Positions 20,675 through 52,403 of a stretch of 64,000 bases of DNA are shown here, piece by piece. How positions within the stretch are numbered: position 1 is the first letter of the stretch; the number at the start of each line of letters is the position of its first letter. This stretch comes from a virus (lineage: Duplodnaviria; Caudoviricetes), in IMG/VR virus record IMGVR_UViG_2595698293_000001, positions 192,001 through 256,000 of that record, one strand, 5' to 3'. Position numbers and translations under genes: made by a program. Below the pieces are notes generated by a model, which had not been told where the DNA came from, ran no database searches, and worked only from the letters and a program-made list of their open reading frames with translations.

Positions 20675-20675
20675 G

Positions 20676-33103: not shown

Positions 33104-33109
33104 GTAATC

Positions 33110-33596: not shown

Positions 33597-33715
33597 TGAG
33601 AATGATAATGATTCTCATTTGAATTGGATGAGAACGATTCTCATTTACTATTGCAAATGATAATAGATTGCATTTACGAATGGTTCTCATTCGCAGATGA
33701 TAATGATTCTTATTC
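33597..33715. promoter_or_regulatory. array of about five Fur-box-like sites
   Basis: AATGATAATGATTCTCATT and variants; further copies at 33886, 34112, 34947. Confidence 0.75.
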
Positions 33716-34328
33716 AAAATTGATTTTTCCGATTTTTTCCATTAGTCACCCTTCAGCGTAGGGTTAATTTTTCCCCTGCCGAATCGGTTTTATATTTTCA
33801 AAATCTGGATTAATCATATCAGTACTAACCCAGATAAACAATACCCTTTTACAAATCTTTACAAAAAGATTCTAAATGCGAATACAAATGATAATGATTC
33901 TCATTTACAGTACTGAATACTTTTCCCCACGCCCTGGCGTCTCCGGTTCCTCCCGTCTATATAAACATTATACAGTACTGAAATATTAAGTCAATACTAT
34001 TTTTTCAAAAAGATTAAAATAAAATACTTGCAATCCTGATATTATTATATTATAATGTTTACAGTACTGAGAAAGTGCTTTTGCCAGCTAGGGTGCGGGG
34101 GAGTATGCGTTAAATGAGAATGATAATCATTTACAGTACTGGACGGATTTTCCCACCCTCGGGGGTCTCTTTTTGTCTATGTAGTAATTATACAGTACTG
34201 AGATACTATATCAAGTCTCTTTACAAATCTTTACAAATCACCCGGGGAGATTTTTCTTTACAATAAAAGTACTTGCATAATTCTTTCAGTACTGCTATTA
34301 TATATTCATACCAAACAGGAGAACTACC

Positions 34329-34499
34329 ATGAAATACGCATACTCTTATTTTATTGTGAACGGTGAACGTTTGACCATCGGCCAGGCAGCGGTAAAGCAT
34401 GAAATCATTTGCGATGATCTGGCGAAGATGCTACCAGGTGAAACGCAAGAGTTTTACAAAGGCTTTCAGAAAGTCACTGTGACCCGCTGCGAAGATTGA
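34329..34499 (+). CDS. 56-aa early hypothetical protein (below track cutoff)
   Basis: own promoter 34273-34301, AGGAG SD. Confidence 0.7.
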   Translation: MKYAYSYFIVNGERLTIGQAAVKHEIICDDLAKMLPGETQEFYKGFQKVTVTRCED

Positions 34500-34562
34500 T
34501 CCAGTACTGGGGCAGCAATGCCCCTAAAACGTCCTGTAACGCATTGTAAGAGGTTTTAGAAT

Positions 34563-34790
34563 ATGGCTAGAGAAGTTAACGCAGGTGATATAAAGGCGGC
34601 TGTACTGCGTACACTGAAAGCATACGGCAGAAAGTTGAATGATCGCAACGTTCCCTATTATTTCCTTGCTGCTACTCATAAAATGGCAATCGCTGAGGCT
34701 CGCGGGTGGCTGAATGATCGCAGTACTGTAAAGAGTACCAGAACAAGAAACGCAATTGAGCGATGGATAAAAGAATTAAATCATTTCTAA
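34563..34790 (+). CDS. basic hypothetical protein
   Basis: GAGG SD. Confidence 0.6.
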   Translation: MAREVNAGDIKAAVLRTLKAYGRKLNDRNVPYYFLAATHKMAIAEARGWLNDRSTVKSTRTRNAIERWIKELNHF

Positions 34791-35178
34791 TAGTTCAGTA
34801 CTGAAATTATAAGGGGAGTTAATTAATTCCCCTTTACAAATCTTTACAAAAGAATTGTTGACATAGTATCCCAGTACTGGTATTATGTATTCATAGACAG
34901 AACAAGTCTTTGGCCCACCGGGTGCGGGGGAGTATCTATTAGATTGAATGAGAATGATAATGATTCTCATTTACTGTACTGAATATATTTCCGCACCCTT
35001 TTGGGCTTTTCGATTACTTTCTACTTGTTAATAAGTATACCATAATCAGTACTGAATGCAATGGTCTTTACAAATCTTTACAAAAGAAAATAATTATAAA
35101 AAGTACTGAAAAAGTACTTGACGTAATAATGTAGTACTGGCATAATACATCCATACCAAACAGAACGGAGTAACTATA

Positions 35179-35466
35179 ATGTTTAATGAAAATGATCATA
35201 TTGTTAAAGAGTTTTCTTTCAGTAAGCCTATCCATTTAGAAAACGGTGAAACGCTGGACAATAAATTTTATGGTAGTATTATTAAGCGTTATACATCGCG
35301 GAGTAGTACTGGAATTTTGTGGGAAGTGAATAAACAGTACAATGGTAATTCGCTGGTTGTCAATGAGTGGGAAAGTTATGCAGTAGCTGAAATGGATTTT
35401 TCTAACTTTATTACTGAATCTTTGAACGATGATATTTTTTACAAGTTCACGGCGGAAAGGGTTTAA
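35179..35466 (+). CDS. early hypothetical protein
   Basis: own promoter, GGAG SD. Confidence 0.75.
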   Translation: MFNENDHIVKEFSFSKPIHLENGETLDNKFYGSIIKRYTSRSSTGILWEVNKQYNGNSLVVNEWESYAVAEMDFSNFITESLNDDIFYKFTAERV

Positions 35467-35582
35467 AAAGTTTTAAAGAGTACTTGACAACATAAACCAG
35501 TACTGTATAATGTATTGCATAGAAAGGAGATTCCAGAATAATGGAATCTCCGATAAAACAAACTAATCAGGAGTTAATTACC

Positions 35583-36191
35583 ATGAACGTTATCGATACC
35601 ATCTATTCTAAATCTTTTATCGAACTGAATGAAGAGCAGAAAGAAAAAGCAATTGATATTATGCGGGAAATTGAAAATCAGGACACTACCCCTTATTGGT
35701 CAATTGATCTTGTTAACCAGATGAAAGAAAAATTAGTACAATATGGAATTGATGATTCTGAAATTTTGTGGTCTGGATTTTGTTCACAGGGAGACGGTGC
35801 AAGTATCAGCACTGAATCAATTAATGCTGAGATGTTTTTACGTAAGGTAAAAGCGTGGTCTAAATTTAAAGGCTTGCGTAAATTCATCTCCGAAGAAACT
35901 ATTTCTTTGAGTGTTCGCCGGGTGAGCCATCATTACTATCATGAATATTGTGTTAGTGGTAATGTTGAAATTGCTTATTGTGAAGATGTTACCGCCAAAC
36001 AAGAACAATTAGTGGACGATTTGCAAACTTTGATCACAAGTACTATTCGTGATTTGTCTCGTGAATTGTATAAAGATTTAGGGAATGAAAACGATTATCA
36101 AAATAGTGATGAAGCATTGATTGAATTGATTAATGCAAATGATTATAATTTCAAAGTTAATAGTACTGGTAACGTATTGGGGTTAGCGTAA
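35583..36191 (+). CDS. conserved mobile-element/phage protein with SGFxSQGDGAS motif
   Basis: FxELxEExKEKAI...WSGFCSQGDGAS; AGGAG SD; start reassigned. Confidence 0.8.
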   Translation: MNVIDTIYSKSFIELNEEQKEKAIDIMREIENQDTTPYWSIDLVNQMKEKLVQYGIDDSEILWSGFCSQGDGASISTESINAEMFLRKVKAWSKFKGLRKFISEETISLSVRRVSHHYYHEYCVSGNVEIAYCEDVTAKQEQLVDDLQTLITSTIRDLSRELYKDLGNENDYQNSDEALIELINANDYNFKVNSTGNVLGLA

Positions 36192-36476
36192 TGACTAAAT
36201 TATATATTCGTTTCTGTTTTGCCTGGTACTTGTATAATCTGCAAAATGGTTATACAGTGAAATAATGCACTGATATACTGTAAAACGTCCTGTAAACGAT
36301 TATGGGACGTTTTAAGGAATATTAGTACAATGTTAGTACTGAATGATTTAAACGCCTTACAGTGGCTTACCGAGCGTTTAAAAAGTAATTGACGTAATAA
36401 TGTAGTACTGGCATAATTCATCTATACCAAACAACAAAGGGAATCAGTACTGATTCCCCTGTAAGGAGTAACCAAA

Positions 36477-36791
36477 ATGAGTACTAAAGAACTGAATGTA
36501 ACTACCAACACTTATAAGACGTTATGCGGTCGGTTGTTACGTGATTATTACACTGTAGAGATTGAAGAACGCGAATTACCCGAAGATAAACACTATTGGG
36601 AAAGTGGTGTTAGTCCTCTGCTACGGGTAACAACGTCTAAGCATGTTTTCTTTACTTCCCGCATTCATGTTAATAAGCGTGTTGAATTGACTTTCTCTTT
36701 CAGTGGTAGTTATAAAGATCATGAGATCTTGAATGATCGTATCGTTATTAATAAATTTATTCAAATGTATGGTGCGGATTCTTTACTTTAA
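36477..36791 (+). CDS. early hypothetical protein
   Basis: promoter, leader hairpin, AGGAG. Confidence 0.8.
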   Translation: MSTKELNVTTNTYKTLCGRLLRDYYTVEIEERELPEDKHYWESGVSPLLRVTTSKHVFFTSRIHVNKRVELTFSFSGSYKDHEILNDRIVINKFIQMYGADSLL

Positions 36792-36877
36792 GTACTTGAC
36801 AATTCGATCCAGTACTGTATAATGTATTACATCAAAGGGGATACATAGTGTATCCCTGATATAAAGGAGTAGCGACT

Positions 36878-37657
36878 ATGCGAGCTTTTAACGTTTATAA
36901 GAATGACAAGAAAATTGATGTTGTTTATTATTCCGAAGTAATGACGGCAAAAGAAGTAACCGATTTGCTGAATAGCCGTGGTGAATACAACGGCGAAGTA
37001 AAAGCATTTCGGTCATTGAATAGTGCGAATATTCGCACAGTACTGAAAAATGCTAAAACTGTTTTATTCAATGATGACGAATATTTTAATAAAGATGTTA
37101 CGGGTATTAAAAACCTGGAAGATCTGAAAAGCCTTATTGGTATTAAAGGCAACGTATACAAAGTGGGGGAAGTCGGATCCCGCCATGAATATAAATTAGC
37201 CAATAGTGATTATAAATTTTCAATCCTGGTAATGTAATATGAAAGTTTATATTTTGGAAGTGGAAGAATGTAATTCATATTCTTACAGTGGTACACTATC
37301 ACGCGTGGAGGCGGTATTTGCCAGCGAGAAAGAAGCCCACGCCGCTGGGGTTCAAAAAGTAAAAGAAGGCTATGAAGGTTATAGCGTCGATGCTTATGAT
37401 ATTCAGGGCGATCTTTCAGCACTTTTAAAGGAATTAAAATAATGGAATATGAATTAATATATCACACTCGGTTATATGTTATTTTCTTTGAAATAACGTT
37501 ATGGGGAGTAAAGGCAACGATTTATAATAAAGACGTTGTCGACGATCAAGAATGGATCGTTGTTGCAGAAGATAAAACGCCTCATGATTCGTTAAGTACT
37601 GATTTTAAATTATGCCGTGAATTATTAAAGAGAATAAGAAAAGAGAATAATATATAA
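36878..37657 (+). other. three-gene early operon (36878..37237, 37239..37442, 37442..37657)
   Basis: promoter 36796, terminator 37658. Confidence 0.75.
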
Positions 37658-37691
37658 AACAAAGGGGATCGATTGATCCCCTTTGTTGTTT
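37658..37691. terminator. bidirectional intrinsic terminator
   Basis: AACAAAGGGGATC-gatt-GATCCCCTTTGTT. Confidence 0.8.
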
Positions 37692-38020
37692 CAGTACTGA
37701 ATTAATAATAGATACACTACGGCACCCTATGGGTTAGTGCCTTGTGTCCGGCTTATGTGGTTATTATGCCAGTACTGCGAACATAAGTCAATAGTTGATT
37801 TGTAAAGAAGTGTAAATGCACAGGAAGCATTGTAAGGCGTTAATCTGTTGCTGGTGGCTGATAGTATAGAGTAGTGTTTTAGATTGATTGTAGGCCGTTG
37901 TAGGCGTTTATAGATAGTAAAGTACTGATAATGTTTAATGATCCTGGTATGTGCAAATTATTTTAATTTTTTTCGTATTGGGTATTGACGGATTATGTCA
38001 GTACTGGCATAATGTATCAC

Positions 38021-38150
38021 ATGAAGCGGCGAGATAGAAAATCATCTCAGTAGCTGGCCAGTAAAGCATACGAAGTCCTGGTGTCGCCTCAAACGGTTTT
38101 AGGTATCAAATAACACGTAACATCTAAACGTTGATGATACTGAAAACTAA
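38021..38150 (+). ncRNA. candidate structured RNA or leader
   Basis: promoter TTGACG 37985 / CATAAT; helices GCGGC/GTCGC, GAGAT/ATCTC, CCAG/CTGG, GTATCA/TGATAC; no SD-linked ORF. Confidence 0.45.
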
Positions 38151-38246
38151 AAAGAAAAAAGTAGTTGACAAGTACTAACGAGAATGAGATAATCTCTCTC
38201 GTTGAAACAAACAAACAATCTTAATCAAAACTTAAAGGTGAATAAA

Positions 38247-38747
38247 ATGGCTAAACTGAATTCTGTGATCGTTGCTCTGCTGGCTGGTGATGTTGCTGCT
38301 CTGAATACTTCTTTCGCGTCGGTATCGATGGAAGATATGAAAACTGTTCGTAATAACTTTAACGAGTTTTACTCCAAGTTTAAAGCTGCTAATGAAGCTG
38401 CTGAAGCGGCGGCGAAAGAGCGTAAAGTACAGATCGAAACCGAAACGAAAGAACTGGTAGACGCCCTGGTAACTGCTGGCCTGGATCTGGAAATGGCCGC
38501 CGAAGTCGCCAGCCAGAAAATGGCGGTGAAATATCCCGAACTGGCTCCGAAGTCTGCAACTGGTAAAACCTGGTCGTTTGAAACCGTATTCGTTAACGTT
38601 GACGGTGAAAAACTGGAAATTGGCACCAAAGGCAACAAAGGCAGTATGAAAGCACTGGCGGCGGCACGCGAAGCAATTGCCGCAGGCAAATACAAAGATC
38701 GTGCTGAATGGATCGCCGCTCACGCCTGGACTGAAACCGAAGCGTAA
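38247..38747 (+). CDS. highly expressed early protein with H-NS/MvaT-like architecture
   Basis: host-optimised codons (CTG, AAA, GAA), own promoter and terminator; coiled coil EAAEAAAKERK...LVTAGLD. Confidence 0.6.
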   Translation: MAKLNSVIVALLAGDVAALNTSFASVSMEDMKTVRNNFNEFYSKFKAANEAAEAAAKERKVQIETETKELVDALVTAGLDLEMAAEVASQKMAVKYPELAPKSATGKTWSFETVFVNVDGEKLEIGTKGNKGSMKALAAAREAIAAGKYKDRAEWIAAHAWTETEA

Positions 38748-38768
38748 TAATTCAGTACTGTAATAATT

Positions 38769-38799
38769 AGCCTCCTGTAATTAGGAGGCTTTTTATTTT
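38769..38799 (+). terminator. intrinsic terminator
   Basis: AGCCTCCT/AGGAGGCT followed by a T-run. Confidence 0.85.
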
Positions 38800-39397
38800 G
38801 TTCAAAAAAATATTTTAATTTATTTTTTGAACGGACTTCAAAAATCGGATATAATAATAAAGGGTGTTAATTACAGAGACCCCCATAGTGTTCGCTACGC
38901 TCACATAATGATCTTACTCGTTGCACTCGTAAGATCATTATCCAATCGGCCTTCGGCGATTTCTTTTTGATTTCCTACGGAAACCAAACGAAACCACCAG
39001 CAAAGGCAGATCCCATTATTTGATTTAGTTAGTACTGCGATTAATTAGTAATTCATTGCACTACATAGCAATCAATTCCTTTTGTAATAGCTCACAGGAC
39101 GCAATAAGACGCGTTTAAATGACTTCCCTATGTAATGCCATTCCTTTTTAATAAGTCCTCTTAAAACGCGTTACAGTGCGTTATATGGCGTTTTTATAAT
39201 ACTCATCATTTCTTTTTCAAAAAGTACTTGCATTAATGATCCAGTACTGCAATAATGTACTCACTGAAACGCAGTAAGCGAAGTAAGTAAATGCAAATAA
39301 GTACTTGACAAAGTGTTGTAGTACTGGCATAATGAATACATCAAAACGAAATAGCAAAGGGATTCAGTACTGAATCCCTGTTAAGGAGAAAAACCAA

Positions 39398-39871
39398 ATG
39401 TTAAAACTTCATAAAGTACTTGATAACGCAGTTGTAACCGACTTTTTCCTGTCTCTTAACAACGAACCGAAAACAGCGAAGGAAATTGTTTTGAGTGGTT
39501 ACATCGCCAGCAAGTCAGAGATCGCACATTTGGAAAGTGCTTTCAAGTCCGGTGATGCATTATACAAAAAAATGCAAAATACCATCGAAGATTTGCAATA
39601 TATCAATTTACGTGATATTGTAGACAATAAATTGGATATTTCAGAAGAAGCACGCGAGAAGCTGGTAAGTAAATTATGTTACCGCTGCCGAACTGCAAAA
39701 TGGAATCGCATTCGTAGTATTATTACTTACGATTTAAGTAATATCGATTCCAAATCAATTCTTGAACGTATGTTATTAAATTTACAAAGCAATGAGTGGT
39801 TTTATACCGCCGCTCAATCTCATAGCGAAGAAATTGCATATATTCGTGATTATGTAATTTACAGCAAGTAA
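39398..39871 (+). CDS. early hypothetical protein
   Basis: tandem promoters, leader hairpin, AGGAG. Confidence 0.8.
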   Translation: MLKLHKVLDNAVVTDFFLSLNNEPKTAKEIVLSGYIASKSEIAHLESAFKSGDALYKKMQNTIEDLQYINLRDIVDNKLDISEEAREKLVSKLCYRCRTAKWNRIRSIITYDLSNIDSKSILERMLLNLQSNEWFYTAAQSHSEEIAYIRDYVIYSK

Positions 39872-39944
39872 TTAATAATTGATTAGCCATCATTAAAGCT
39901 GGTGGCTAATAGAATATTAATAACCTGTTAGGAGAATAATCTTT

Positions 39945-40214
39945 ATGAAAGGTATTAGTACTTTAATTGATAAAAACACTCATGTAAGACGTTCAATGAT
40001 TGCCGTATCACTGGCTAAAGTTGTTGCAAGTGGTTATCTGGTTTTTGTTGTAGATGGTAAATTGCAAGAGCGTTCAATTGCATTTAGTACTAAAGAAAAT
40101 TGCCGTTATATTGTATACAAGAAAGAAGCATACAAGATAGATTTACCAGCGAAACCGATCTCCGGTGGTTACAATGTTGAAAGTCTATATGAAAGGCCAC
40201 CGTATACTGCGTAG
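39945..40214 (+). CDS. early hypothetical protein
   Basis: AGGAG SD. Confidence 0.7.
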   Translation: MKGISTLIDKNTHVRRSMIAVSLAKVVASGYLVFVVDGKLQERSIAFSTKENCRYIVYKKEAYKIDLPAKPISGGYNVESLYERPPYTA

Positions 40215-40468
40215 AATCGATTTTGAGCGGCTTTAATGAAATATAGGGTATCAGTACTGATACCCGTTTAAAACAGTGTAGGAGTGATTCTGTGAAGCGT
40301 GAACAAGCTTTATTGACGCCTGAAGAGGCAAGACGCTATGAAATGTTTTCAAACCAGGAAACGATCAAAGCGGCACAATATAACCCGGTTGCTTGTACAG
40401 TACAAAGAAAGAATTTTGTACTAAATGAAGTAGAAAGTATTATCAAATCAAATAAGGAGTAACAAGCT

Positions 40469-40741
40469 ATGCAAAATAACCGTCCAATGATCCGCAACAT
40501 GCTTTTCGTATTCCAGAAAAAAGTTAATGTAACTTCGGTAAATGGTGAACGTAAATTAAATGCAGCATTCGCCAAATATACCCAAAGCAAAAACATCCAT
40601 TACTTTTATCTTACTCTGAATGAGTTTAATGATCTGGTAAAAGAAATGTTTGTCAGTACTGAAATTGTTGCACCTGTAAGTACTGACACCATTTTGAAAG
40701 AGTGGGAAAGTTTTTACAAAAGTTCTGTTGTAATCGCTTGA
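40469..40741 (+). CDS. early hypothetical protein
   Basis: AGGAG SD. Confidence 0.75.
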   Translation: MQNNRPMIRNMLFVFQKKVNVTSVNGERKLNAAFAKYTQSKNIHYFYLTLNEFNDLVKEMFVSTEIVAPVSTDTILKEWESFYKSSVVIA

Positions 40742-41058
40742 CAACATAATCCAGTACTGGCATAATAACTACATAGACCACAAAGGAGAAACATAATGGA
40801 AACTGTAATTGCTACTACCAAAATCAATGGACTGGATAATGAAGTTTCATTGATCCATGACGGTAACGAATATGTTGTGTCATATGGTATCTATAAAACC
40901 TATCATGACGCTATCAATGAAGCTTTTGAGGATTATATGAAAGCAATTGAAATTGCTTATGATGATTATCGTTGAAAGTACTTGCTTTAATCATTCAGTA
41001 CTGTATAATGTATTACATCAAAGGGAATGAATGATTCATTCCCACATAACCAGGAGTA

Positions 41059-41418
41059 ATGACTATGTTTGATAAAGTTTTATTTTCTGATAACACCTCT
41101 GAAACCGAGATCCCGGAAGCGGTAAAAGCTTTTGCTCAATTAGTTGCCCAGCGTCAAACTGATAATTACGACGGGCCTTATTCTTTTCTTACTGAGATTA
41201 GTAAAGGCAAAAAGTTTATTAAACTTATTCGCCGCGAGAAGTGGAAAGATAACGGACAATTAACAGGCGGATCGGTATTTGCCTTTATTGATCCCGATGG
41301 TAACATTTACAAATCAGCGACAGCTAAAGCACCAGCTAAAGGCATTCGCGGAAATGTTAACATCAACGGCGGCGGTGATGCAATCGGGCGTGATGGTTAT
41401 ATTCGTTACTTTCGTTAA
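41059..41418 (+). CDS. conserved phage protein (GKKFIKL...SVFAFID..GNIYKSA..KAPAKGIRGN)
   Basis: recognisable widespread phage family of unknown function; own promoter. Confidence 0.8.
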   Translation: MTMFDKVLFSDNTSETEIPEAVKAFAQLVAQRQTDNYDGPYSFLTEISKGKKFIKLIRREKWKDNGQLTGGSVFAFIDPDGNIYKSATAKAPAKGIRGNVNINGGGDAIGRDGYIRYFR

Positions 41419-41507
41419 TTGACAAATCTTTACAAATCCAGGGGTTGACTTCGGTCGCCCCTTTTGTTATTATATATTCATACCACAGAGCAAGTGGTTT
41501 AGCCCAC

Positions 41508-41625
41508 AGGGTGCCGAGATGTATCTATAGTTTAATGATTTTAAGTACTGAAAAATAATTATAAAAAGTACTTGCTAGACGTGAATTCTTTTAAGAATTC
41601 ACTTGTATTTGTGATTCAGTACTGC
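41508..41625 (+). repeat. ~118-bp near-identical direct repeat, second copy at 51395..51513
   Basis: one-base indel; contains inverted repeat GTGAATTCTT-TT-AAGAATTCAC. Confidence 0.9.
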
Positions 41626-41932
41626 TATTATATATTCATACCAATTAAGGAGATTATCCAAATGAATACACAATATGTGCCGGTGATGAATATCACTATA
41701 GGAAATGGAAAAGGTATGCATCGATTCAGTACTACAAAGAGTTATACTCAGCGTACATTAGAATCATGTGCAATTACTAAATGGCAAATCAAACATTACT
41801 TCACTACGGACAAGAAATAATGATTGTAAAAGTATTGACAACGATAATTCAGTACTGTATTATAACTGGTGTAGCGTTCGTGTTAGCAGTTGCTATAGTG
41901 TTTAGTACTGTAATTGTATTGGGGAACATATC

Positions 41933-42238
41933 ATGATTAAAAATATTGAAGCATTCGATAAAGCATATCTTTACACCAGTACTTTTCGGAATAGCGATGG
42001 CGATCCGGTTGAATTTAAAAATGTAGTACTGATCCGGCCTGGTTTTGATATTATTCATATCTGGAATTCATGGAATCAAGCGGCGGGCAATCGCTATACT
42101 ATTGATAAAGAAATTTCAATAGAAGAAGCGTTAAAACTTCCATCATTGCCGGATCGTTTATCCCTGGCTAGTCGTGTGGAACTGGTGGGTGATACCGCAC
42201 AATATATCACGCATGAGTATGAATTTAAGTACTTATAA
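41933..42238 (+). CDS. early hypothetical protein
   Basis: own promoter. Confidence 0.7.
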   Translation: MIKNIEAFDKAYLYTSTFRNSDGDPVEFKNVVLIRPGFDIIHIWNSWNQAAGNRYTIDKEISIEEALKLPSLPDRLSLASRVELVGDTAQYITHEYEFKYL

Positions 42239-42324
42239 GTGTTGACAACATAATTCAGTACTGTATAATGTATTACATCAAAGGGGATACATAGTGTATC
42301 CCTGAATTAACAGGAGTAACCCAT

Positions 42325-42573
42325 ATGTCTAGTATCGTTATCAATGAAACCTTATTATCTGTTACTTATGACAATGACAGTGTTTTTCCGGGTAAAGATT
42401 ATGGGGACGAAATTCCCGTAAAAGTTGAACTCGATCAAAGTGTCGGTAATGCCGACGATATTAAACGCACTATGGTGGTTAAAATTGGCGATATCACTTT
42501 ATTGCCCATTGATATTGATTATATCAAGTTTATGATTGATCGTGCAAATACCATTGCCGAAACCTTCAAATAA
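42325..42573 (+). CDS. early hypothetical protein
   Basis: promoter, leader hairpin, AGGAG. Confidence 0.8.
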   Translation: MSSIVINETLLSVTYDNDSVFPGKDYGDEIPVKVELDQSVGNADDIKRTMVVKIGDITLLPIDIDYIKFMIDRANTIAETFK

Positions 42574-42656
42574 GTACTTGACAACTGGTTTCAGTACTGT
42601 ATAATGTTTATCAAAGGGGATACATAGTGTATCCCTGATTTAAAGGAGATTCTAAA

Positions 42657-42845
42657 ATGGCAGTAGTATACGGTTATATCAGCAACTATGATTTGACTTT
42701 CCGGGAAGTCGGTACTGAATTAGGTGCAAAGAATGCAGCAACGCGAAACGGCTCGACCCGCGTAGGATATCGCAGTAGTATTAATAATATGTATATTGAA
42801 ACGCATATCCGCAACGATAAAAAGGGTAAATGGGAAAAAGTGTAA
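42657..42845 (+). CDS. early hypothetical protein
   Basis: promoter, leader hairpin, AGGAG; GAKNAATR motif. Confidence 0.8.
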   Translation: MAVVYGYISNYDLTFREVGTELGAKNAATRNGSTRVGYRSSINNMYIETHIRNDKKGKWEKV

Positions 42846-43235: not shown

Positions 43236-43553
43236 ATGAAAGATGTAACTTTACCAGTAGTTCAAACTAACTTTGAAAACCAATTCCTGGCCGAAGTATT
43301 CAAGATTGATAATGGCGTTGTATCAATCAATTACGGTTTCAATAGCGGCGGTTATGAAAAATTCATTTATTTCGTTACTGCCGATGGTGGATGCCTGGCA
43401 ATTGATACGGTACTGAATGAATTCAGTAAAGTAGATTTTAATGATGATAATGATCCTCAGTGGTATATTGTCGGCTATGACGTGAACTATGAAGATGAAG
43501 ATCTTTATGATGATCATACTAATCAAAAAATTGAATCCGCTTATGGGGAATAA
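43236..43553 (+). CDS. acidic conserved early phage protein (GGY...DG...W.IVG.DVN.ED..L...IESAYGE)
   Basis: AGGAG SD; start reassigned. Confidence 0.8.
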   Translation: MKDVTLPVVQTNFENQFLAEVFKIDNGVVSINYGFNSGGYEKFIYFVTADGGCLAIDTVLNEFSKVDFNDDNDPQWYIVGYDVNYEDEDLYDDHTNQKIESAYGE

Positions 43554-44725
43554 AAATGATCATCGTACTATCAGAGAAAGAAAAGAAATTAATTCTTTCA
43601 GTACTGAAAGAATATCCCAGAAATATGCGGGAGCCGTTTGAAACAAATGGTGAATTCGAAGAGCATTTAAACGATATCGATTTATTGATATCCAAGATTG
43701 AATCACAATAGTGATGTACTGTAAAACGTCCTGTAATCGATTATGGGACGTTTTAAGGAATAGCACTATGATTTATTCAGTACTGTAAAAAAACGCTTGA
43801 AAATTGATTCCAGTACTGTATAGCTGCATTACTGTTTAATGTGGGGTATTAAAATGAAATATGTTATGGTAGATGAAATTACTAGCACGAAACCCAGTGA
43901 TGATTATAACAAATGGCTTGCCCGTAGCAATAAATGTATTATTCCGCACGATGACCGCGTATATCATTGTTATGAATGCGGGGAGATTATACCAAATGTA
44001 CTGGATCATTCAATCTTTACATATGATGATCTTAATTACGCTCATTCAAGATGCCTTGATAAAAAATAGTTGACAGTATCATATCAGTACTGTATAATGC
44101 TTTACATAGGAAAATTATTCTCCCCATTATCAGGAGTAAAGAATATGTTTTACATCGGTACTGTTAAAAAAAATTCAAATGTAATTGAAGCATCATTGAT
44201 TTGTACTAACAATGAAGTGGCTGGCTATGATTATGCTCAAGAACGATTCATGAAACACTATACCGGTGATGATTCAGTGTCATTCGATTTTGAACGTATC
44301 GGTGATGGTGTTACAATTATGAAATTTGAAGATCTCCCTGAAATCGATTTTGATTTTGTCGTTACACTGTAAAAAAAGTACTTGCATAATTCTTTCAGTA
44401 CTGTATACTGTACTTATACCAAACAAAAGCAAATGGAATCAGTACTGATTCCCTGTAAAGGAGATAGACCAATGTCAGATCGTATCACTCGCAAAATGGT
44501 AGCAGATAAAGTTGCTGGGCTGAATCTTGCTATTGACCGTCGTGGATTGCCTGAAAAATATCAGGTAGTACTGGAAGATGGCAAATTCAATATTGAATTA
44601 CAGCCGTCTCATGTTTATACTAAACCAACGACAGTACAAGGGAATTTAAGTACACGTGAAGCATATCTTTACCTCAAAGGTATGTTTGAGATCCTTCTCA
44701 ATAATGTACCATATAAAGATTAAAG

Positions 44726-44756
44726 AAAAAGGGGAGACAATGAGTCTCCCTTTTTT
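44726..44756. terminator. bidirectional intrinsic terminator
   Basis: AAAAAGGGGAGAC-aatga-GTCTCCCTTTTTT. Confidence 0.85.
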
Positions 44757-44949
44757 GTATTCAGTACTAAATTATATAGATACATTTATGCACCCTGTGG
44801 GTTAGTAGCTTGTTCTGCTTTATGTAGTAATTATATGATAAAGCTGGTGGCTTGTCAACACTTATTTTAAAATAAAAAGTACTGAATAGTACTTGCAAAA
44901 AGTATTCAGTACTGTATAATGTTTGTATTGAGATTAAGGAGTTCTTACT

Positions 44950-45507
44950 ATGTTAATCAAAATGTATCACGGTTCTAATAATTTTGATCATCGCTGGGGA
45001 TATCTGGGTGGAAAACCTGGCAATTTTCATATGGGTTTTGGACTATATCTAACTAACTCTTATCGCTGGGCTGATAATTATGGGCGACGTCATTATGAGT
45101 TAGATTTAGATATTTGTAGTACTGGTGCCGCACATAATGTATGGATTCCTACTAAACACTTTATGGAATTCATAAGAGTATATTGTACTAAAAAGTTTTA
45201 TACAATGTGCTGTAAAGAATTTAAAGACCGTGAATCTTTGAATGTAGAACGCGTTGAATTGCTTATTATCAATATGGAAAGGCACGTTACGAAAATCGCT
45301 AAACCATTTGCTGAATTCGTCGCTGCCTGGGGTTGTACGCATAGCATTGAAATATCCGGTAACTATGGTGGTGTTTGCGTGCGGCTTTATGATTTCAGTA
45401 TTATAAAGAATTGTATCATAAGCCAGGAAACGCAGGATTTTTATTATCCAGATGAATTGACAAGATATCCTCAAAAAACTTGTATTAATGATTCAGTACT
45501 GATATAA
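44950..45507 (+). CDS. ADP-ribosyltransferase-fold-like protein
   Basis: MYHGS...GFGLYLT...AxxYG motif typical of H-Y-type ARTs. Confidence 0.6.
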   Translation: MLIKMYHGSNNFDHRWGYLGGKPGNFHMGFGLYLTNSYRWADNYGRRHYELDLDICSTGAAHNVWIPTKHFMEFIRVYCTKKFYTMCCKEFKDRESLNVERVELLIINMERHVTKIAKPFAEFVAAWGCTHSIEISGNYGGVCVRLYDFSIIKNCIISQETQDFYYPDELTRYPQKTCINDSVLI

Positions 45508-46987
45508 TGAATTAAATTAATCAGGAGGAATTATCTTAAATGAATAACCGTCAATTGATGATCGATGCATCTCGTTTTCGTTCAAAAGAAGAAAAGAGAA
45601 GTTGCATTAAATGGGTTTTGTCAACTTTCATTATTGGATTACTTATTGTTGCTTTTGTTTATAGTTAGTACTTGACAATATAATCCAGTACTGTATAATG
45701 TTTATCAAAGGGAATGAATTATTCATTCCCGATTAATCAAAGGAGTTTTGCCATGATCTATATTATCAAAGTATCCCCGACCGTAGGTAAATCAGAAGTT
45801 GTAGCTGTTATCACTTCCCTGGAAGCGAAAGATCTTCATACCCCGTTTAATGTATGGGTGGAGGATAATTTCGGACAATTCAGTACTGCTGAATATATCG
45901 AACAATTCGCTGTCCCGGACACTGGTAAAATCAAAGTGGATCGTGTCCTGGATTTTGATAACAGTAATTACTTTTAAAAACGTTTGACAACTGATTTCAG
46001 TACTGTATAATGTTTATCAAAGGGAATGAATTATTCATTCCCGATTAATCAAAGGGGTTTATCATGAAAGAGTATATCTTTGAAGTAACTTTCACATTTG
46101 GCCCGCACCAACTGATCCGGTCTTCTGGCTACAACCGCGAACAAGCATTCAGCAACCTTCGCCGTATGTACCCCAATGTCGTGACCTGGGTCAAGTGTGA
46201 AGAAGCTTAAAATAATTAGTCAGTACTATTGACAACGGGTGATAGTACTGCTATAATTATTTTAACTTATACGGAATGGAGTTAAAACAAATGTTCAGTG
46301 TCAGCAAACAAGGCGACAAATTTCTGGTTCAATACCATCATTTTGATCTGGTATACACTCAGCCAGATTGTGTATTCAGTACTCAGGAAGGTGCCGAAAA
46401 GCACAAAAAAGCCTTGATCGAAAATAGCAACAGTGGTACATTAGATTTCATCCAACAGTACTGGAATGAATCTAAGCTGGTGGACGGTTATTCCAACACA
46501 GTTTATTATGTAGGTATCACTGATTAATCGGGAGTACTGTTAATGTATATGCCAATTATCATACCGTTAGCAGTACTGTTAATCGCCGCCGTTATCTGCG
46601 AACAATATCATTTGTTAGGAATGTAAACTATGATTCAATGTGAATTGTCAGTACTGATCACGCTGTTCTATATGTTGGGGCAAAAGAAACAAGATATTTC
46701 TGGTGATAATGCATTATTGTATCAATCATTAGACCAATGGCAACGATCTGAATTAAGCAATGCATGGGCGAAAGGTTACAACGATAGTACTGCAAAATAA
46801 TTTAAAAAAGGGGTTGACTTACGCCAGCCCTTTTGTTATCATTAGTACATAGCAAGAACAATGCTCAAGCCCACAGGGTGCGGAGGTGTATCTATAGTTT
46901 ATGTTGGTCTGAATCATTAATTTTCTTGACAATTGGTTTAGTACTGGATATAATAGCCGCCATTGAATACAGGAGGATTTTAAAAAA

Positions 46988-47254
46988 ATGGCCTATCATA
47001 CACCACATAGACATTTCATTGATAAACGCGGTATGGCTTTTAAAGCAATGAGTGACAATCGTAACACACAAATGTACTTTAAAGATATGACGTTAGAAGA
47101 AGCTATTGAAGCTGTAAGGAATGATCGTAAGCTTTCCAAGAAAGTTGCATCAGTACTTAATGCTTTTTGGTTTGAACGTACTACCAACAAAGAATACAAA
47201 GAAAAGATGATTGCACTTGGTAAAGTAGTAAGAGAAGAAAAATTATATCTTTAA
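46988..47254 (+). CDS. basic early hypothetical protein
   Basis: AGGAGG SD, own promoter. Confidence 0.75.
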   Translation: MAYHTPHRHFIDKRGMAFKAMSDNRNTQMYFKDMTLEEAIEAVRNDRKLSKKVASVLNAFWFERTTNKEYKEKMIALGKVVREEKLYL

Positions 47255-47505
47255 GTACTTGACTATGTGATTCAGTACTGCTATTATATATTCATACCAA
47301 TTAAGGAGATAGACCAAATGAAACAAGCTAAATTTAATTCAGAAATTAAAGCAGCAAAAGCACACAAAGTACAGTTAGTAGTACTGGTTATTGTATCAAT
47401 CTTTTTGCTGTGCAACATCGGCTAAAATAATTATTACAGTACTATTGACAACCAACGATAGTACTGGTATAATTACTTTACCAAATAAAAAAGGAGTAAC
47501 CAAAA

Positions 47506-47781
47506 ATGCGGATTAAACTTACCAGTGATGAGATTCATTCAGTACTGACTACCAATATGCAGGACTGGAAAAAGTACGCTGATATCGAAGAAGTCCAGGA
47601 ACTCAATGATGATTTGAGTGTAGATGAAATTATCACTATTTGCTCATCTCAATTCTTTGATGATATCAATGATGAAGAGCAAGATGTATTTGATATCATG
47701 GAAAAACATTTTATTGCGTATGATGTTTTCCCGTATACTCGCCAGGCTTATATTCTTATTCACAACATTTATAACAAATAA
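47506..47781 (+). CDS. acidic early protein, possible DNA mimic
   Basis: about 20 D/E versus 7 K/R in 91 aa; AGGAG SD. Confidence 0.6.
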   Translation: MRIKLTSDEIHSVLTTNMQDWKKYADIEEVQELNDDLSVDEIITICSSQFFDDINDEEQDVFDIMEKHFIAYDVFPYTRQAYILIHNIYNK

Positions 47782-47793
47782 GGAATAATAATC

Positions 47794-48159
47794 ATGGAAA
47801 AAGAATTTAAAATCAAATACAATATCAGTACCGATGGCGGTTTTGAAGTACCAGAAGAAGATCAAGAACGTCTTAATGATGTTATTATGATTGACATTTC
47901 AAATAAAATCATTCAAGGCTACCGCGAAGGTGAATTGTGTGAATCGTTGATGGATCAATTCGATGAAGTGGAAACGTTTTATCGTGGCTGGTGGAGTATC
48001 GAAGAAGTTCACAAAGTACACGAATACCGTGTATTCTGGATTAATGGCGTTAATGATATCGAAGATATCATTGTAAAAGAAAGTAGTGAATCCGCCGCCA
48101 TTCAGTACTTTAAAGATCACTACCCCAACAAACGTTATCACCATTTAGAAAAAATTTAA
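47794..48159 (+). CDS. acidic early hypothetical protein
   Basis: GYREGEL...YRGWW motif. Confidence 0.75.
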   Translation: MEKEFKIKYNISTDGGFEVPEEDQERLNDVIMIDISNKIIQGYREGELCESLMDQFDEVETFYRGWWSIEEVHKVHEYRVFWINGVNDIEDIIVKESSESAAIQYFKDHYPNKRYHHLEKI

Positions 48160-48246
48160 AAAGTAATTGACAACATAATCCAGTACTGATATATTAATAC
48201 GCATAGGGGCAAACAACTTGCCCCACTAAACAAAAGGAACTACCAA

Positions 48247-48603
48247 ATGATTACTAAATTCTACGCTACTCGTGAACAGGCTCGGATCGTCGCTCGTGAA
48301 GAAGGCGAAACCTTCAAAGATATGGGTAAAGATTCCCCTGCTGGTCAACGCTGGGCAGTACTGTTCCGCGAGGTCAAAGACCTGGTAGAAAACGCTAAAG
48401 CCGTTGAAATGAACGTTCCCACCAAAGAAGATAAAGAACTGACTGATGCCCTCGCTGCTGCATTCTCCGCGATGGATAAAGCCGCAGCGGTAGTACTGAA
48501 AGTACCGGAATTTGTTACCAGAAAAGTGCATTCAGTACTACAAAATAAATTCAACGGTAAACAGGTTCAAGTGTTTACTAAACGTAAAATTCCGGTCATG
48601 TAA
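48247..48603 (+). CDS. highly expressed early hypothetical protein
   Basis: optimised codons; FYATREQAR...KDMG...GQRWAV. Confidence 0.8.
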   Translation: MITKFYATREQARIVAREEGETFKDMGKDSPAGQRWAVLFREVKDLVENAKAVEMNVPTKEDKELTDALAAAFSAMDKAAAVVLKVPEFVTRKVHSVLQNKFNGKQVQVFTKRKIPVM

Positions 48604-48707
48604 AATCTGACTATTACAGTACTAACAAAGGGGCTTCAATGCCCCTTTAAACGTCCTGTAAGCCATTCTAAGAGGTTTTACATGAAAAGGTACAACTACA
48701 CAAAGGA

Positions 48708-48929
48708 GTGATGAAAGTTCATTATAATGCCCCGCAACGCATTATAGATAGAGCCATTGAACTAGCCAATCAATACCTAGCTGGTGGATTAACTCCCAGG
48801 AAGTTAAGCAACGGGAAGTTATATGTAATCAACGTTGATACTAATAATCGTATAGTAATCAAAGGTGAAAGCATATCACTGTATGAACATCAGCAGTATA
48901 ACAAGAAAGTAAAAAATATTAGTAGATAA
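48708..48929 (+). CDS. small basic protein, weakly ParE/RelE-like
   Basis: P..I..RA...Y...RKL...YVINV...RI...HQQYNK pattern; weak. Confidence 0.4.
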   Translation: MMKVHYNAPQRIIDRAIELANQYLAGGLTPRKLSNGKLYVINVDTNNRIVIKGESISLYEHQQYNKKVKNISR

Positions 48930-49008
48930 GTGTTGACAACTGATTTCAGTACTGCCATAATGTATACATACAAGGCAATACCGCCTAATAACATAGGAGT
49001 AACTGAAA

Positions 49009-49431
49009 ATGAAAAAATCCACTAAAATTATCTTAGGTGTATTTGTTGTTCCGGCAGTAGCCTTTTTTACTTGTGCTATGATTTTTGGTGATGCTTCTCG
49101 GGTTGCCGCAAAAATCGAAAAAGAAAAACAAGTCCAGGTGGAAGTCAAGAAAGAAGAAAAGAAAAATTATAACACTGTATGGGAAGCAATTTGCCATACC
49201 AGTAATGGTAAAAGGATCTCCATCCTTACAGCGATGAATAATGGAAAATCAATCGTCGGAAACGAATATATGGAAGTTACTTCCAGTACTGGTAAAGAAT
49301 TTGTAATGACGAACTATAATAACAATAACGTTGCAATTGTTACACAAGATTTTAAAGGTAATGCAGTACTTGAATATCATACGGAATATGAAGTAATATT
49401 TGCAAAATGCACATTTGAATGGGGTGCATAA
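49009..49431 (+). CDS. membrane-anchored periplasmic hypothetical protein
   Basis: N-terminal TM; CHTSNG...AKC resembles the CxSNDG family. Confidence 0.7.
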   Translation: MKKSTKIILGVFVVPAVAFFTCAMIFGDASRVAAKIEKEKQVQVEVKKEEKKNYNTVWEAICHTSNGKRISILTAMNNGKSIVGNEYMEVTSSTGKEFVMTNYNNNNVAIVTQDFKGNAVLEYHTEYEVIFAKCTFEWGA

Positions 49432-49614
49432 AAATAAACATAATAAACAAAAAAGGGGGTTGACACAGGTCAGCCCTTTTGCTATTATTAATATCAAGAA
49501 AACAAGCTAACCCACAGGGTGCATAAATGTATCTATAATTTATTAAAGAATTTTAGTACTTGACAACGTAGTACAGCAGTACTAAAATATCTACATACAA
49601 AGGAGATTACCAAA

Positions 49615-50199
49615 ATGAACAAACATCTTAAAGTACTGAATAAATGTAAATCCAATACCGAAATGTTACTGTACTGTTACAAAAATTTAATTAAACTCGG
49701 GAGAGGTTCATCCAGAACAGTATTTTTGTTAACAAAAAACAAAGTACTGAAAGTTGCTCATAACCATATTGGCAACCAACAGAATACAGCAGAAATCACT
49801 GCATGGTTGTATATTGATTATGACCGCTATTATAATAAACGCTTTTTCGCTAAAGTGTTCCCTGATATGTCGCATTTTAAAGATGTATACATAGTACAGG
49901 AGTACTGCGACAATATCAGTACTAAAGAAGCGAAGCCATACATTGAACATTACTTGACACCTAGCACTATTGAAAATGAGCGTGCTAAACGCTTCCACAC
50001 GGCGTTAAGAGATGTAGACAATACCCTTAACTATAAAACGCTGGTGGACTTAAACGTGGGCAATATAGGCCGTTCTGTAAGGGGTGCAATAAAACTCCGT
50101 GATTATGGATTATCTGAACATATTGCTAAACAGTATAGAGAAGCCCGCGACCAGTACCACCAACTCAAAAGTATTAGTAACATAAGTATTGATTTATAA
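49615..50199 (+). CDS. protein-kinase-like (Ser/Thr kinase fold) protein
   Basis: G-loop LGRGSSRTVF, VLKVA, alphaC Glu (NTAE), catalytic DLNVGNIG, DYG. Confidence 0.8.
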   Translation: MNKHLKVLNKCKSNTEMLLYCYKNLIKLGRGSSRTVFLLTKNKVLKVAHNHIGNQQNTAEITAWLYIDYDRYYNKRFFAKVFPDMSHFKDVYIVQEYCDNISTKEAKPYIEHYLTPSTIENERAKRFHTALRDVDNTLNYKTLVDLNVGNIGRSVRGAIKLRDYGLSEHIAKQYREARDQYHQLKSISNISIDL

Positions 50200-50264
50200 T
50201 TTCAGTACTGCTATAGTACTTTCACAGGGGAGATAATCTCCCCAATCACAAAGGAGATTTTACC

Positions 50265-52384
50265 ATGAGTACTAAACCATTTGTAACCACTCGTTCTAAT
50301 CTGACTGAGATCTATGTACATGGTGGATATGAGGAAACGTATGTCACTGGTATTATGGTAGAATTCAATCAGGGTTATCGGTTTATGTTGGTAGATTCAG
50401 AAATCTATCATACACAACAAGATAAACATGGTTATGTCAATAAGTACTCCACCGATGAAGTACTGAAACGCCTGGATAACAAAATTAAACAAATTCAAAA
50501 ACATCTTGACAACGGCGGAAAACTTAATCATTTACTTTGGGATAGCTTAGATCCCTGCTACGGTTCCGATGCATATGGTAAAAGCCGTGACACTGCAATG
50601 AAAGTACTTAAAGATTATTTCTTTTAAGTATTGACAAGTAATTCCAGTACTGGCATAATGTATTTCAAGGAGGTAATAACACCTCCTACCTTCAAGGAGT
50701 AGTGACTATGAATACTAAAGAAATGCTTTGTGAGTTCGCCAGTAACAATCTTGGCAACGCCGCGTTCATTGATGGTTTTAATTATGTAGCAACTCGTGAT
50801 CAAGAAGGTAAAGTATTCGTTAAAGATCGTATGGGCTTTTCTATCCAGGTTCAATCCGGTACTGCAAGCCATATCGACGGCATGAATGTATGGGCTGCTA
50901 CTATCCCCGGTGATGGAACATATCATTTCCGTATCGTAAAATAATTTAAAAAGTACTGGACAATACAATCCAGTACTGTATAATGTTTTGCATAGGGAGA
51001 GATAATCTCTCCCACTAAAGGAGAATACCGAAAATGATTACTGGTCACATTACTAACTATGCAAAACGCCGCGATGTAGAAATAGAAGTACTGAAAGCAG
51101 GCGAAGTTGACGATGACGCTCAGGTATGGTTCTACACCGCAGACAATGATTGTGAACCAGTACTGATGTACCTGATTAATAATGATGGTTCTCTTACTTA
51201 TCGTAGCAAACTGATGAAGTCCCTGGAAGATATGCCAGCACATATCAATAATAAAGAAGTACTGAAACGCGTAATCTGCTACATCTCAGACCAGCACAAA
51301 GCGGATATGATGTAATCTTTACAAATATGGGGGTTGACTAATGTCAGCCCTTTTGGTATTATATATTCAATCCAGCGAAATGGTCTAACCCTCAAGGGTG
51401 CCGAGATGTATCTATAGTTTAATGATTTTGAAGTACTGAAAAATAATTATAAAAAGTACTTGCTAGACGTGAATTCTTTTAAGAATTCACTTGTATTTGT
51501 GATTCAGTACTGCCATAATATATCCATACAAGGGAAACATAGTGTTTCCCGATAATCCACAGCAATAGTGCTGGTGGATGAACCAGGAGTAATAACCATG
51601 CAAGACAAATCAATTCATGTTCAAGTAGTTTCAAGCCGTGGCTATGACGATGTAGTACTGGATATCATGGTTAAAGATCTGCGGGACTATGCAATCATTG
51701 CACGTCATATCATGGTTAACTCCATTTGTATCAGTACTGGTGCTGATATGGAAGAAAACCGCTTACATATAGAAGAACATCTATACAAAGCACGCATGAA
51801 TGACAGCAGTGTATTCATCATTGAAGGTGCCGAGGGTAAAGAGTATACTGTATACCTTCGCCAGTACCAGGAAGTAGAAAAAGAAGAAGATTAATTTATA
51901 AAAAGTACTTGCTTTAATAGTTCAGTACTGTATACTGTTTATCAAGGGGAAGCAATAGTGCCTCCCCACTCATAGGAGATACACCATGTTTACTATCACT
52001 TCTCGACAGGATGTTCTGTACGTTGCTAAAACTTTTGGTCTGGAAGCACTCGATCATATCATTCGCAACAGTACAATGAATGCTGATGCAAATGGGATTA
52101 TCATTGATACTCGGGCATGGGCCGCCAATGAAGTCATTGCCATCGAGCATGTTAACGATGGTAACAATGTCTATGAAGTGGATGCATGTTTCAATGCTGT
52201 TAATGTAGCAGGTATGTATATCACTGGTATTGATGATATCACTATCATCCGCTCCGGTATGGGTAACTTCTCCATGCCTTTACGTTCAGCAATGGAAAGA
52301 AAAGAGATCAGTACAGAACAATGTGCAAATATAATCAATGAGATTACCGCACGTAATGAAGCTGCTGCTATCCTTTACCCGTAG
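50265..52384 (+). other. five monocistronic early hypothetical CDSs (50265, 50702, 51034, 51598, 51986)
   Basis: each has an AGTACT promoter, leader hairpin and AGGAG SD. Confidence 0.8.
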
Positions 52385-52403
52385 TAGTTCAGTACAGTAC
52401 TGT

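Follow-up and report, generated by a model that had tools for sequence, protein, structure and literature searches.

We analyzed a stretch of 64,000 nucleotides (nt) of viral DNA (Duplodnaviria, Caudoviricetes; positions 192,001 to 256,000 of the IMG/VR record IMGVR_UViG_2595698293_000001), which is called the window here and in which positions are counted from the first letter. The phage is an Alcyoneusvirus-like Klebsiella jumbo phage, and between positions 33747 and 51417 it carries a repeated unit in which a sigma70-type promoter is followed by a short module with two small hairpins (H1, H2) and an unpaired tail. Comparison with other genomes leaves little doubt that these units are copies of one conserved promoter-coupled RNA module of the RaK2-like giant enterobacterial phages, and that this module, which comprises H1, H2 and the tail, is confined to the terminal repeat. 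We tentatively interpret the units as a multi-copy, very early non-coding RNA family, the conserved module of which would act in trans as ligand or decoy; for this statement as a whole we see somewhat less than an even chance.

Structure and copy number of the units

Thirteen units were found in the repeat, eight of which are clear and five degenerate, and the degenerate copies are located at its left end (33745-35061). The order of the elements is a sigma70-type promoter, H1, a linker of 3-5 nt, CCC-N3/4-GGG-TGC, six variable bases and finally either GTATCTAT or a Fur-like box. According to our reading of the flanks, the −10 element of the promoter ends 5-7 nt 5' of the CAT or CAA that opens the unit, and a predicted −10 hexamer was present 5-7 nt before the start in all eight clear units. 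H1 is a variable stem of 3-5 base pairs (bp) with a purine-rich loop of 5-8 nt and was found in seven of the eight clear units (the copy at 49492 lacks it). H2 (R-CCC-N3/4-GGG-U) and the GC that follows it constitute the invariant core, which is present in all eight. The tail 3' of H2 is unpaired and involves the six variable bases and then (G)TATCTAT, which is conserved as plain sequence. In the left-end copies, G runs are located directly 3' of H2.

The original prediction for this region had described repeated promoter-coupled units with a CCC-n-GGGTGC core, and such units are real: the CCCNNNGGGTGC core occurs eight times in the window (0.03 expected from shuffles), and the thirteen units are distributed over both strands. 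When the loop was relaxed to 2-5 nt, we obtained 10 sites, all of them between 32832 and 51401. The word GGGTGC was found 18 times in the window, and 11 of these copies belong to units. Similarly, GTATCTAT is present 11 times, in eight cases 6 nt after the GGGTGC of a unit. We rejected a reading of (A/G)TG-TAT-CTA-TAG as mini open reading frame (ORF) since the start codon is missing in many family members, which carry for instance CC or AT instead.

Covariation of the hairpins

A covariance model was built from 10 copies of identical geometry and whole genomes were scanned with it. In the 345,809-bp genome to which the window belongs we obtained eight matches, all of them at window positions 34892-51415. 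For quantification of the base pairs, 92 matches from 11 genomes (80 distinct rows) were aligned by fitting them to the model. Here, we found that all four H1 pairs change on both sides and that 95.6% of the H1 cells are paired. The H1 covariation score amounted to 0.381 versus 0.128 in shuffles, and none of 500 shuffles reached the observed value; when the 3' partners were slid by 1-3 columns, the score was at most 0.044. The family involves at least 20 distinct H1 stem sequences, and the commonest loops are AGAACAA (12), AGATAA (11), GCGAAA (8) and GAGAAA (8). Thus, the earlier suggestion that the H1 sequence varies while its pairing is kept proved to be correct, and for this reason a role at the RNA level is likely.

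The H2 hairpin behaves differently in that its CCC/GGG pairs are C-G in 74-79 of the 80 rows, and a few copies carry CCT...AGG. The outer pair of H2 is A-U in 43 and G.U in 34 rows. Over all eight pairs of the module, 49 G.U or U.G cells were counted versus 3 A.C or C.A cells. This ratio suggests that the transcribed strand folds; a different ratio would be predicted for a protein site in the duplex or if the opposite strand folded. A mutual-information scan of 81 anchored sequences did not reveal any Watson-Crick-type covarying pair 3' of H2.

Distribution among phages

The original prediction had proposed a covariance search of phage genomes, and this search yielded 109 matches in 12 genomes (records of 345-378 kb) with covarying stems. 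Apart from the eight matches in the genome of the window, 51 were found in fHe-Yen9-04, CBB, 121Q, GAP32 and Munch, 43 in the record G005, fENko-Kae01, 7t3, Hallingskeid and Muenster, and seven in fHe-Yen9-03. All 109 matches lie within a single block of at most 20 kb per genome or in its terminal duplicate (CBB, fENko-Kae01), and the unit block of fENko-Kae01 is annotated as terminal repeat. In the Pseudomonas jumbo phage PA5oct, a distant relative, no model match was obtained at E ≤ 1.

Nucleotide searches with one cassette (blastn) returned 87 phage records. The 55 rows with a query coverage of at least 64% all derive from enterobacterial jumbo phages (310-386 kb), plus one 52-kb fragment, and the hosts of these phages are Klebsiella, Escherichia, Salmonella, Yersinia, Pectobacterium and Erwinia. 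Cronobacter phages of 141-147 kb in the blastn list match the promoter/terminator part only; the Cronobacter phage GAP32 (358,663 bp) was reached via a core-pattern scan of IMG/VR and via the model scan. The IMG/VR scan gave 98 stretches, the best 80 of which include seven loci in five jumbo-phage records of ~350-380 kb, and the remaining stretches among these best 80 are probably chance matches.

The module is conserved beyond its genomic surroundings. Over its first 44 nt, the copy at 46848 shows no difference from one of the copies in the Salmonella phage Munch; the identity of terminal-repeat proteins shared between phages is only 32-73%. When 8 kb of the repeat were searched by megablast, matches outside the genus were limited to the unit cassette and a 46-nt stretch at 37722-37767, which overlaps the unit at 37708-37757. 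Several H1 types (for instance AGCA/TGCT, TGGC/GCCG, TCCA/TGGA) recur in different genera. In the terminated units of Munch, fENko-Kae01, 7t3 and Hallingskeid, the interval from GTATCTAT to the terminator contains an additional conserved stretch (AGTACTGTACAAATAAACAG), for instance at 12001-11940 (minus strand) of locus L100 and at 10216-10300 (plus strand) of locus L115. Since AGTACTGTACAAATAAACAG is located before the terminator, the whole RNA of ~100 nt may be conserved in these four phages.

The terminal repeat

By megablast, 33700-41700 matched the Klebsiella jumbo phages RCIP0023 (97.2% identity over 98%), Muenster (95.7%) and K64-1. In Muenster, positions 1-20030 are annotated as terminal repeat on the basis of a PhageTerm prediction. 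In our alignment, Muenster position 1 corresponds to window position 32815 and Muenster 18356-21158 to 50971-53802. Transfer of these ends places a direct terminal repeat, an early region that holds every unit, at 32815-52680. Since the ends were transferred from Muenster, the right boundary is approximate, and since the Muenster repeat aligns there, the units (33747-51417) are wholly located within this direct repeat of ~20 kb. The repeat is packed with about 42 small plus-strand ORFs and with many sigma70-like promoters, and we counted 34 terminator-like sites versus 9.6 in shuffles. A scan of the window for transfer RNA and transfer-messenger RNA genes gave no hit.

Genomic context and location of the units

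Across the family, 84 non-redundant units were sorted by simple pattern rules. Another promoter-like site is present within 90 nt downstream in 31 of them, an intrinsic terminator follows within ~35-60 nt in 12 (10 of these opposite to the gene strand), and 25 face a partner unit, eight of them with a Fur-like box in between. The remaining 16 units fall into none of these three contexts, and 59 of the 84 are solitary. Head-on pairs recur 1-3 times per repeat. In CBB, GAP32, 121Q, fHe-Yen9-04 and G005 they show a fixed offset of 64-65 nt and an A+T-rich center, and in the window, Munch, fENko-Kae01 and 7t3 a Fur-like box is located at the center.

The units had been said to drive no ORF. This is correct in so far as there is no ORF within any of them, but within about 50-200 nt downstream of each of the five distal plus-strand units (41479, 42916, 46848, 49492, 51362) there is a gene with a ribosome-binding site and a second promoter. 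Only two of the five, 41479 (hairpin at 41581-41602) and 51362 (hairpin at 51469-51490), carry a terminator-like hairpin between unit and gene.

The first of these units, 41479-41528 (49.3 bits in the covariance model, H1 ACCAC/GTGGT; whole feature 41445-41602), is preceded by a promoter at 41445-41473, the −35 of which lies inside a terminator-like hairpin, and is followed by the second promoter and a gene starting at 41662. Unit 42916-42961 (57 bits, H1 TGGC/GCCG; feature 42882-42961) is preceded by a promoter (about 42882-42910) and followed by a second one and by a 37-amino-acid ORF at 43056. The top-scoring copy, unit 46848-46895 (69.9 bits, H1 AGCA/TGCT; feature 46807-46895), starts with a composite terminator/promoter at 46807-46842 and precedes a second promoter (46926-46954) and a gene starting at 46988. 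Unit 49492-49536 (44.1 bits, no H1; feature 49453-49536) has a composite at 49453-49488, followed downstream by a second promoter (49560-49588) and a kinase-like gene starting at 49615. The last unit, at about 51366-51417 (22 bits, H1 CCA/TGG, H2 loop of four bases; feature 51329-51490), has its composite at 51329-51362. In these three composites, the terminator-like hairpins (46807-46834, 49453-49480, 51329-51352) contain the −35 hexamer of the unit promoter, and their T tracts run into the −10 of the next promoter.

Two distal units are stand-alone copies on the minus strand, which run into strong terminators, so that RNAs of about 100 nt are predicted. The feature 37658-37791 (33.9 bits) consists of a promoter at 37791-37763, the unit 37757-37708 with H1 GCC/GGC and a 13-pair intrinsic terminator at 37687-37658. 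The feature 44732-44858 (50.4 bits) involves the promoter TTGACA-17-TATAAT at 44858-44830, the unit 44824-44776 with H1 AGC/GCT and a terminator at 44750-44732.

The copies at the left end include two head-on pairs. The left member of the second pair (34858-34939, plus strand; 65.8 bits, E = 4.7e−14) is a clear unit with the promoter TTGACA-17-TATTAT at 34858-34886, the unit at 34892-34939, H1 AGAC/GTCT and CCCACCGGGTGC. Its right member (34981-35061, minus strand) is degenerate and shows a promoter-like element at 35061-35034 and CCCAAAAGGGTGC at 35005-34993. A Fur-like palindrome (34947-34974), in which sites at 34950-34968 (plus strand) and 34956-34974 (minus strand) overlap with three mismatches each, occupies the center of this pair. 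In the first pair both members are degenerate. Its left member (34028-34109, plus strand; nhmmer E = 0.003) carries a promoter at 34028-34056, H1 at 34063-34079 and a weakened H2 with GGGTGC and a G run at 34084-34109, and its right member (34145-34214, minus strand), which was found in the promoter scan, has a promoter at 34214-34187 and an H2-like hairpin at 34165-34145 but no H1. The Fur-like box at the center (34113-34134) contains a site at 34116-34134 with three mismatches to the 19-nt consensus.

Two further degenerate copies are located on the minus strand. The feature 33886-33994, which was also found in the promoter scan, consists of the promoter TTGACT-16-TATAAT (33994-33967), a G-rich variant hairpin (33940-33925) and a Fur-like box (33886-33908; site in the 19-nt consensus scan, 33890-33908). 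In the leftmost copy (33745-33841), which was recognized by reading of the sequence and missed by the covariance model, a promoter-like element (33841-33813) precedes an H2-like hairpin (33763-33745), the loop of which is longer. This copy is oriented toward an array of about five overlapping Fur-like boxes at 33590-33715, just left of the units. Outside the units, the H2-like word CCCACTGGGTGC is present without a promoter on the minus strand at 32832-32843, within the repeat and 17 nt from its inferred left end, but the membership of this word in the family is doubtful. We considered this word as a mark of the genome terminus and rejected the idea, since it is missing from the ends of seven other records checked.

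Accessory sequence motifs

For Fur boxes we used a 19-nt palindromic consensus and accepted sites with at most three mismatches. The window contains five such sites versus 0.13 expected, and the whole genome seven, five of which are located within 33598-34974. At the same stringency, boxes were also found in Muenster, Munch, fENko-Kae01 and 7t3, and none in CBB, GAP32, 121Q, fHe-Yen9-04, Hallingskeid and G005. It had been proposed that the pairs at 34028-34214 and 34858-35061 converge on Fur boxes. Both pairs do converge on Fur-like boxes, but such boxes are confined to the Klebsiella and Munch-like lineages, and Fur is plausibly a lineage-specific add-on.

The CpxR-type box of the original prediction, TTTAC-N5-TTTAC, is enriched in the window (6 versus 0.5 expected) and flanks the second pair on both sides (34833, 35067) as described. 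However, this tandem box precedes only four of the 84 family units, three of them in this window. A single AATCTTTACAA box ~50 nt before the unit was found for 12 of the 84 units in seven of the 10 phages of the set. Similarly, the proposed fit to the elemental pause, GG-N8-TG, is seen in seven of eight units here but only in 41 of 76 family members with intact core; a T at −1 is present in 67 of these 76. The low family-wide counts indicate that tandem box and pause motif are local or partial features that do not define the family.

Searches for known families, targets and partners

When the whole window was searched against Rfam 15, no match reached the gathering score. With relaxed thresholds, 12 weak matches were obtained on terminators, none on the unit core, and none at E = 0.01 on the units. 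The strict core pattern was absent from 185,579 bacterial and archaeal species genomes, blastn of one unit against 5,426 E. coli genomes gave no hit, and there was no sense match to the E. coli ribosomal RNA (rRNA) operon. Our literature search, which did not extend to the supplementary promoter tables of CBB and PA5oct that possibly list such promoters, did not retrieve a description of the unit family, and the accessible parts of the CBB, PA5oct and AVAST-5 papers contain nothing on the units. The RNA family is thus without match or description in the libraries and the literature searched, which agrees with the earlier statement that no system with such a layout is known.

As antisense targets in the phage genome, we found complementarities of 12-14 nt at most outside the units; shuffled units gave the same lengths and we discarded this possibility. 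Pairing with 16S rRNA is a weak lead only: for 80 unit tails, the duplex energy with 16S rRNA amounted to −16.1 versus −14.9 kcal/mol for shuffles, which is no better, and the best sites were elsewhere. We observed that GTATCTA is complementary to positions 789-795 of E. coli 16S rRNA and CAGGGT to the adjacent positions 794-799, for example in the unit segment 46876-46895.

Only two of the 42 ORFs of the repeat are present in all nine other terminal repeats compared. One (48711-48929) encodes a ParE-like toxin-domain protein of 72 amino acids (PF24732, 41 bits). The other (39945-40214) encodes an 89-amino-acid protein (PHROG 14550, no Pfam match), for which a mostly beta-stranded model with a predicted local distance difference test score of 75.2 was built from only six sequences. 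When this model was compared with the PDB, no solved fold matched (best E = 0.29).

Other features of the repeat

Wastewater contigs join distinct repeated promoter regions of 32800-52799 (for instance 34317 to 44430, 37423 to 45672, 49488 back to 42235). These joints suggest that cassette-mediated gene shuffling may distinguish related phages. An early protein encoded at 38247-38747 shows a match to the H-NS N-terminal domain below threshold (21.9 bits, cut-off 24.5), and its Muenster counterpart is annotated as putative DNA-binding protein. The palindrome CAGTACTG occurs 103 times in the window (0.59 expected), for instance at 34872-34879 and 41617-41624, and AGTACT is present in 937 copies in the 346-kb genome, 146 of them within the repeat. 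Such palindromes are located just 5' of the −10, abutting the −35 (AGTACTTGAC), in the loops of 5'-leader hairpins and inside genes. Close to the right end of the repeat, the terminator at 52404-52431 consists of an H2-like word and its inverted copy (AAGCCCATAGG...CCCTGTGGGCTT) and resembles a promoter-less miniature of the head-on pairs.

Discussion

Judging from the promoter consensus, host sigma70 RNA polymerase would fire the unit promoters upon DNA entry, and the first ~35-50 nt of every unit transcript would correspond to the module. We propose that the short RNA itself is the product that matters, that it would be synthesized in bulk from ~13 promoters per repeat, and that it may act in trans as ligand or decoy of a host or phage protein which reads the invariant H2-GC core. 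The end of the transcript would be of secondary importance: transcription may stop at a terminator of the unit (~100 nt), at a Fur-type roadblock or where a facing polymerase is encountered, or it may continue into the next gene. We favor a trans-acting small RNA because the units are placed independently of strand and gene, because some copies have their own terminators, because the core is invariant and because the copy number is high. The independence from a downstream gene, which we count for action in trans, is seen in the 12 of 84 units that are terminated (10 opposite to the gene strand) and in the 25 that face a partner.

Several of our data weigh against this interpretation. In 31 of 84 cases, the unit lies just 5' of a co-oriented second promoter and gene, which also fits a cis-acting role. 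The fixed pair offset in five genomes suggests that the geometry of the DNA matters, and a purely trans-acting RNA needs none. We did not find a partner protein for the module; the ParE-like and the 89-amino-acid protein are the only two that occur in all ten repeats compared, the one of the window included. The public "RNA" runs that contain this DNA are wastewater metagenome or metatranscriptome contigs only, which show neither the starts, ends and levels of transcripts nor expression as such and speak neither for nor against transcription. The pair counts derive from an alignment that was fitted to the structure of the model and is thus biased toward pairing. Finally, the hairpins are tiny, the fold energies of single sequences (eight units) were no better than those of shuffles (z-scores between −1.53 and +0.26), and the structural support is thus provided by comparison between phages and not by thermodynamics.

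A possible explanation, to which we assign about one chance in four, is a cis-acting co-transcriptional element: the nascent module would stay with its own polymerase or pause it, either by put-like processive antitermination or as hairpin-stabilized pause. In this case, the response to the many terminators of the repeat would depend on whether a polymerase had started at a unit promoter or at an ordinary gene promoter. The position of the module is in line with this idea, since its beginning invariably coincides with the inferred start site, 5-7 nt 3' of the −10. The same applies to the 31 of 84 units with a second promoter and a gene downstream in the same orientation, to the copies at 41479 and 51362, where a terminator-like hairpin separates unit and gene, to the high density of terminator-like sites in the repeat (34 versus 9.6) and to GG-N8-TG in seven of eight units of the window. 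However, 12 of 84 units run into strong terminators, 10 of which are followed by nothing but the antisense strand of other genes, and 25 of 84 are opposed by a second unit ~110 bp away. GG-N8-TG is retained in just 41 of 76 copies family-wide, put RNA is about twice as long as the module, and there is no match to an Rfam family.

The trans-acting RNA also has to be weighed against a device at the level of DNA or R-loops, which we regard as rather unlikely. Here, head-on pairs would park polymerases against each other or against Fur, or RNA-DNA hybrids would prime early replication, and R-loop origins are used by phage T4 to prime replication. The conserved head-on pairs, with a fixed 64-65-nt offset and A+T-rich center in five genomes and a Fur-like box in others, are consistent with such a device, as are the location of all units within the repeat and the G runs right after H2 in the left-end copies. 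On the other hand, H1 covariation and the 49:3 excess of G.U cells argue for folding of the transcribed strand and not for a duplex protein site, and a dimeric protein on duplex DNA would hardly accommodate an H2 loop that is 3 nt long in some copies and 4 nt in others. Moreover, 59 of 84 units are solitary, ten origins within 20 kb would be unusual, and convergent transcription generally overwinds the DNA between the promoters.

It is improbable that the units are just terminator-promoter cassettes like the PeSLs (promoter-early stem-loops), in which the leader merely stabilizes the 5' ends of transcripts and which spread and persist via recombination between copies. Composite terminator-promoters precede the units at 46807, 49453 and 51329, as in the PeSLs of T4-like phages (PMC4122927), and metagenome contigs join repeated promoter regions (for instance 34317 to 44430, 49488 back to 42235). 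However, conservation between genera is higher for the leader than for the genes that it would serve, H2-GC does not vary even in units without a gene behind them, and H1 types are shared across genera and not homogenized within a genome. In our view quite unlikely is a polymerase-capturing RNA, the module of which would bind the host RNA polymerase that has just synthesized it, so that head-on pairs park two loaded polymerases against each other or against host Fur at the genome end. The result would be an iron-gated nucleoprotein anchor, through which the earliest stages of infection would be controlled by holding or staging DNA entry, by priming replication or by switching early transcription; we know of no phage that uses such an anchor.

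Jumbo phages of the RaK2, K64-1 and 121Q type are therapy candidates against Klebsiella and E. coli, and their earliest transcription is unmapped. Judging from their promoters, the units are likely to give the first and most abundant transcripts after DNA entry. Since they are more conserved than any early protein and match nothing described, they offer direct experimental access to a putative RNA-based step in the take-over of the host. Their addition to RNA-family libraries could stop the annotation of such loci as empty intergenic DNA or spurious small ORFs, and the cassettes are predicted to be compact, strong and insulated promoter parts.

Comparison with known systems

The putL and putR sites of phage HK022 are cis-acting antiterminator RNAs with two hairpins just downstream of early promoters. 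The units share with put the two hairpins (H1 and H2, at about +3 to +32), a host-type early promoter and the lack of an ORF, but this is a resemblance of layout only. They differ from put by about half its size, by ~10-13 copies on both strands, by head-on pairs and by a terminator that often follows immediately. The context speaks against put-like action in cis for 37 of the 84 units.

Face-to-face promoter pairs are present in phage P22 (Pant/Psar, sar RNA) and coliphage 186 (pR/pL). They resemble the head-on units in that two strong promoters converge over ~60-110 bp and give short overlapping transcripts. However, each of these phages has just one such pair, which serves as a developmental switch and includes at least one promoter with genes under its control, whereas both members of a head-on unit pair are ORF-less copies of one module.

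For the terminal repeat of PA5oct, two highly transcribed non-coding RNAs of 236 and 451 nt, each single-copy, are reported from RNA sequencing (PMC7318152). Like the units, these RNAs lack an ORF and belong to the long terminal repeat of a jumbo phage that is a relative of the present one, but with zero model matches in PA5oct they are not homologous to them.

As far as they are described in the accessible part of PMC4122927, the PeSL cassettes of T4-like phages consist of a terminator and a promoter ahead of genes. The units resemble them as composites of terminator hairpin and sigma70 early promoter, which recur many times in a plastic region rich in small early genes of unknown function and show signs of recombination between copies. 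In contrast to these cassettes, the units carry a conserved structured leader of ~50 nt with an invariant core after the promoter, and many copies are gene-less, on the opposite strand or facing each other. The contig joints between repeated promoter regions would fit a PeSL-like role in gene gain and loss, yet 12 terminated and 25 paired units of the 84 have no gene to serve.

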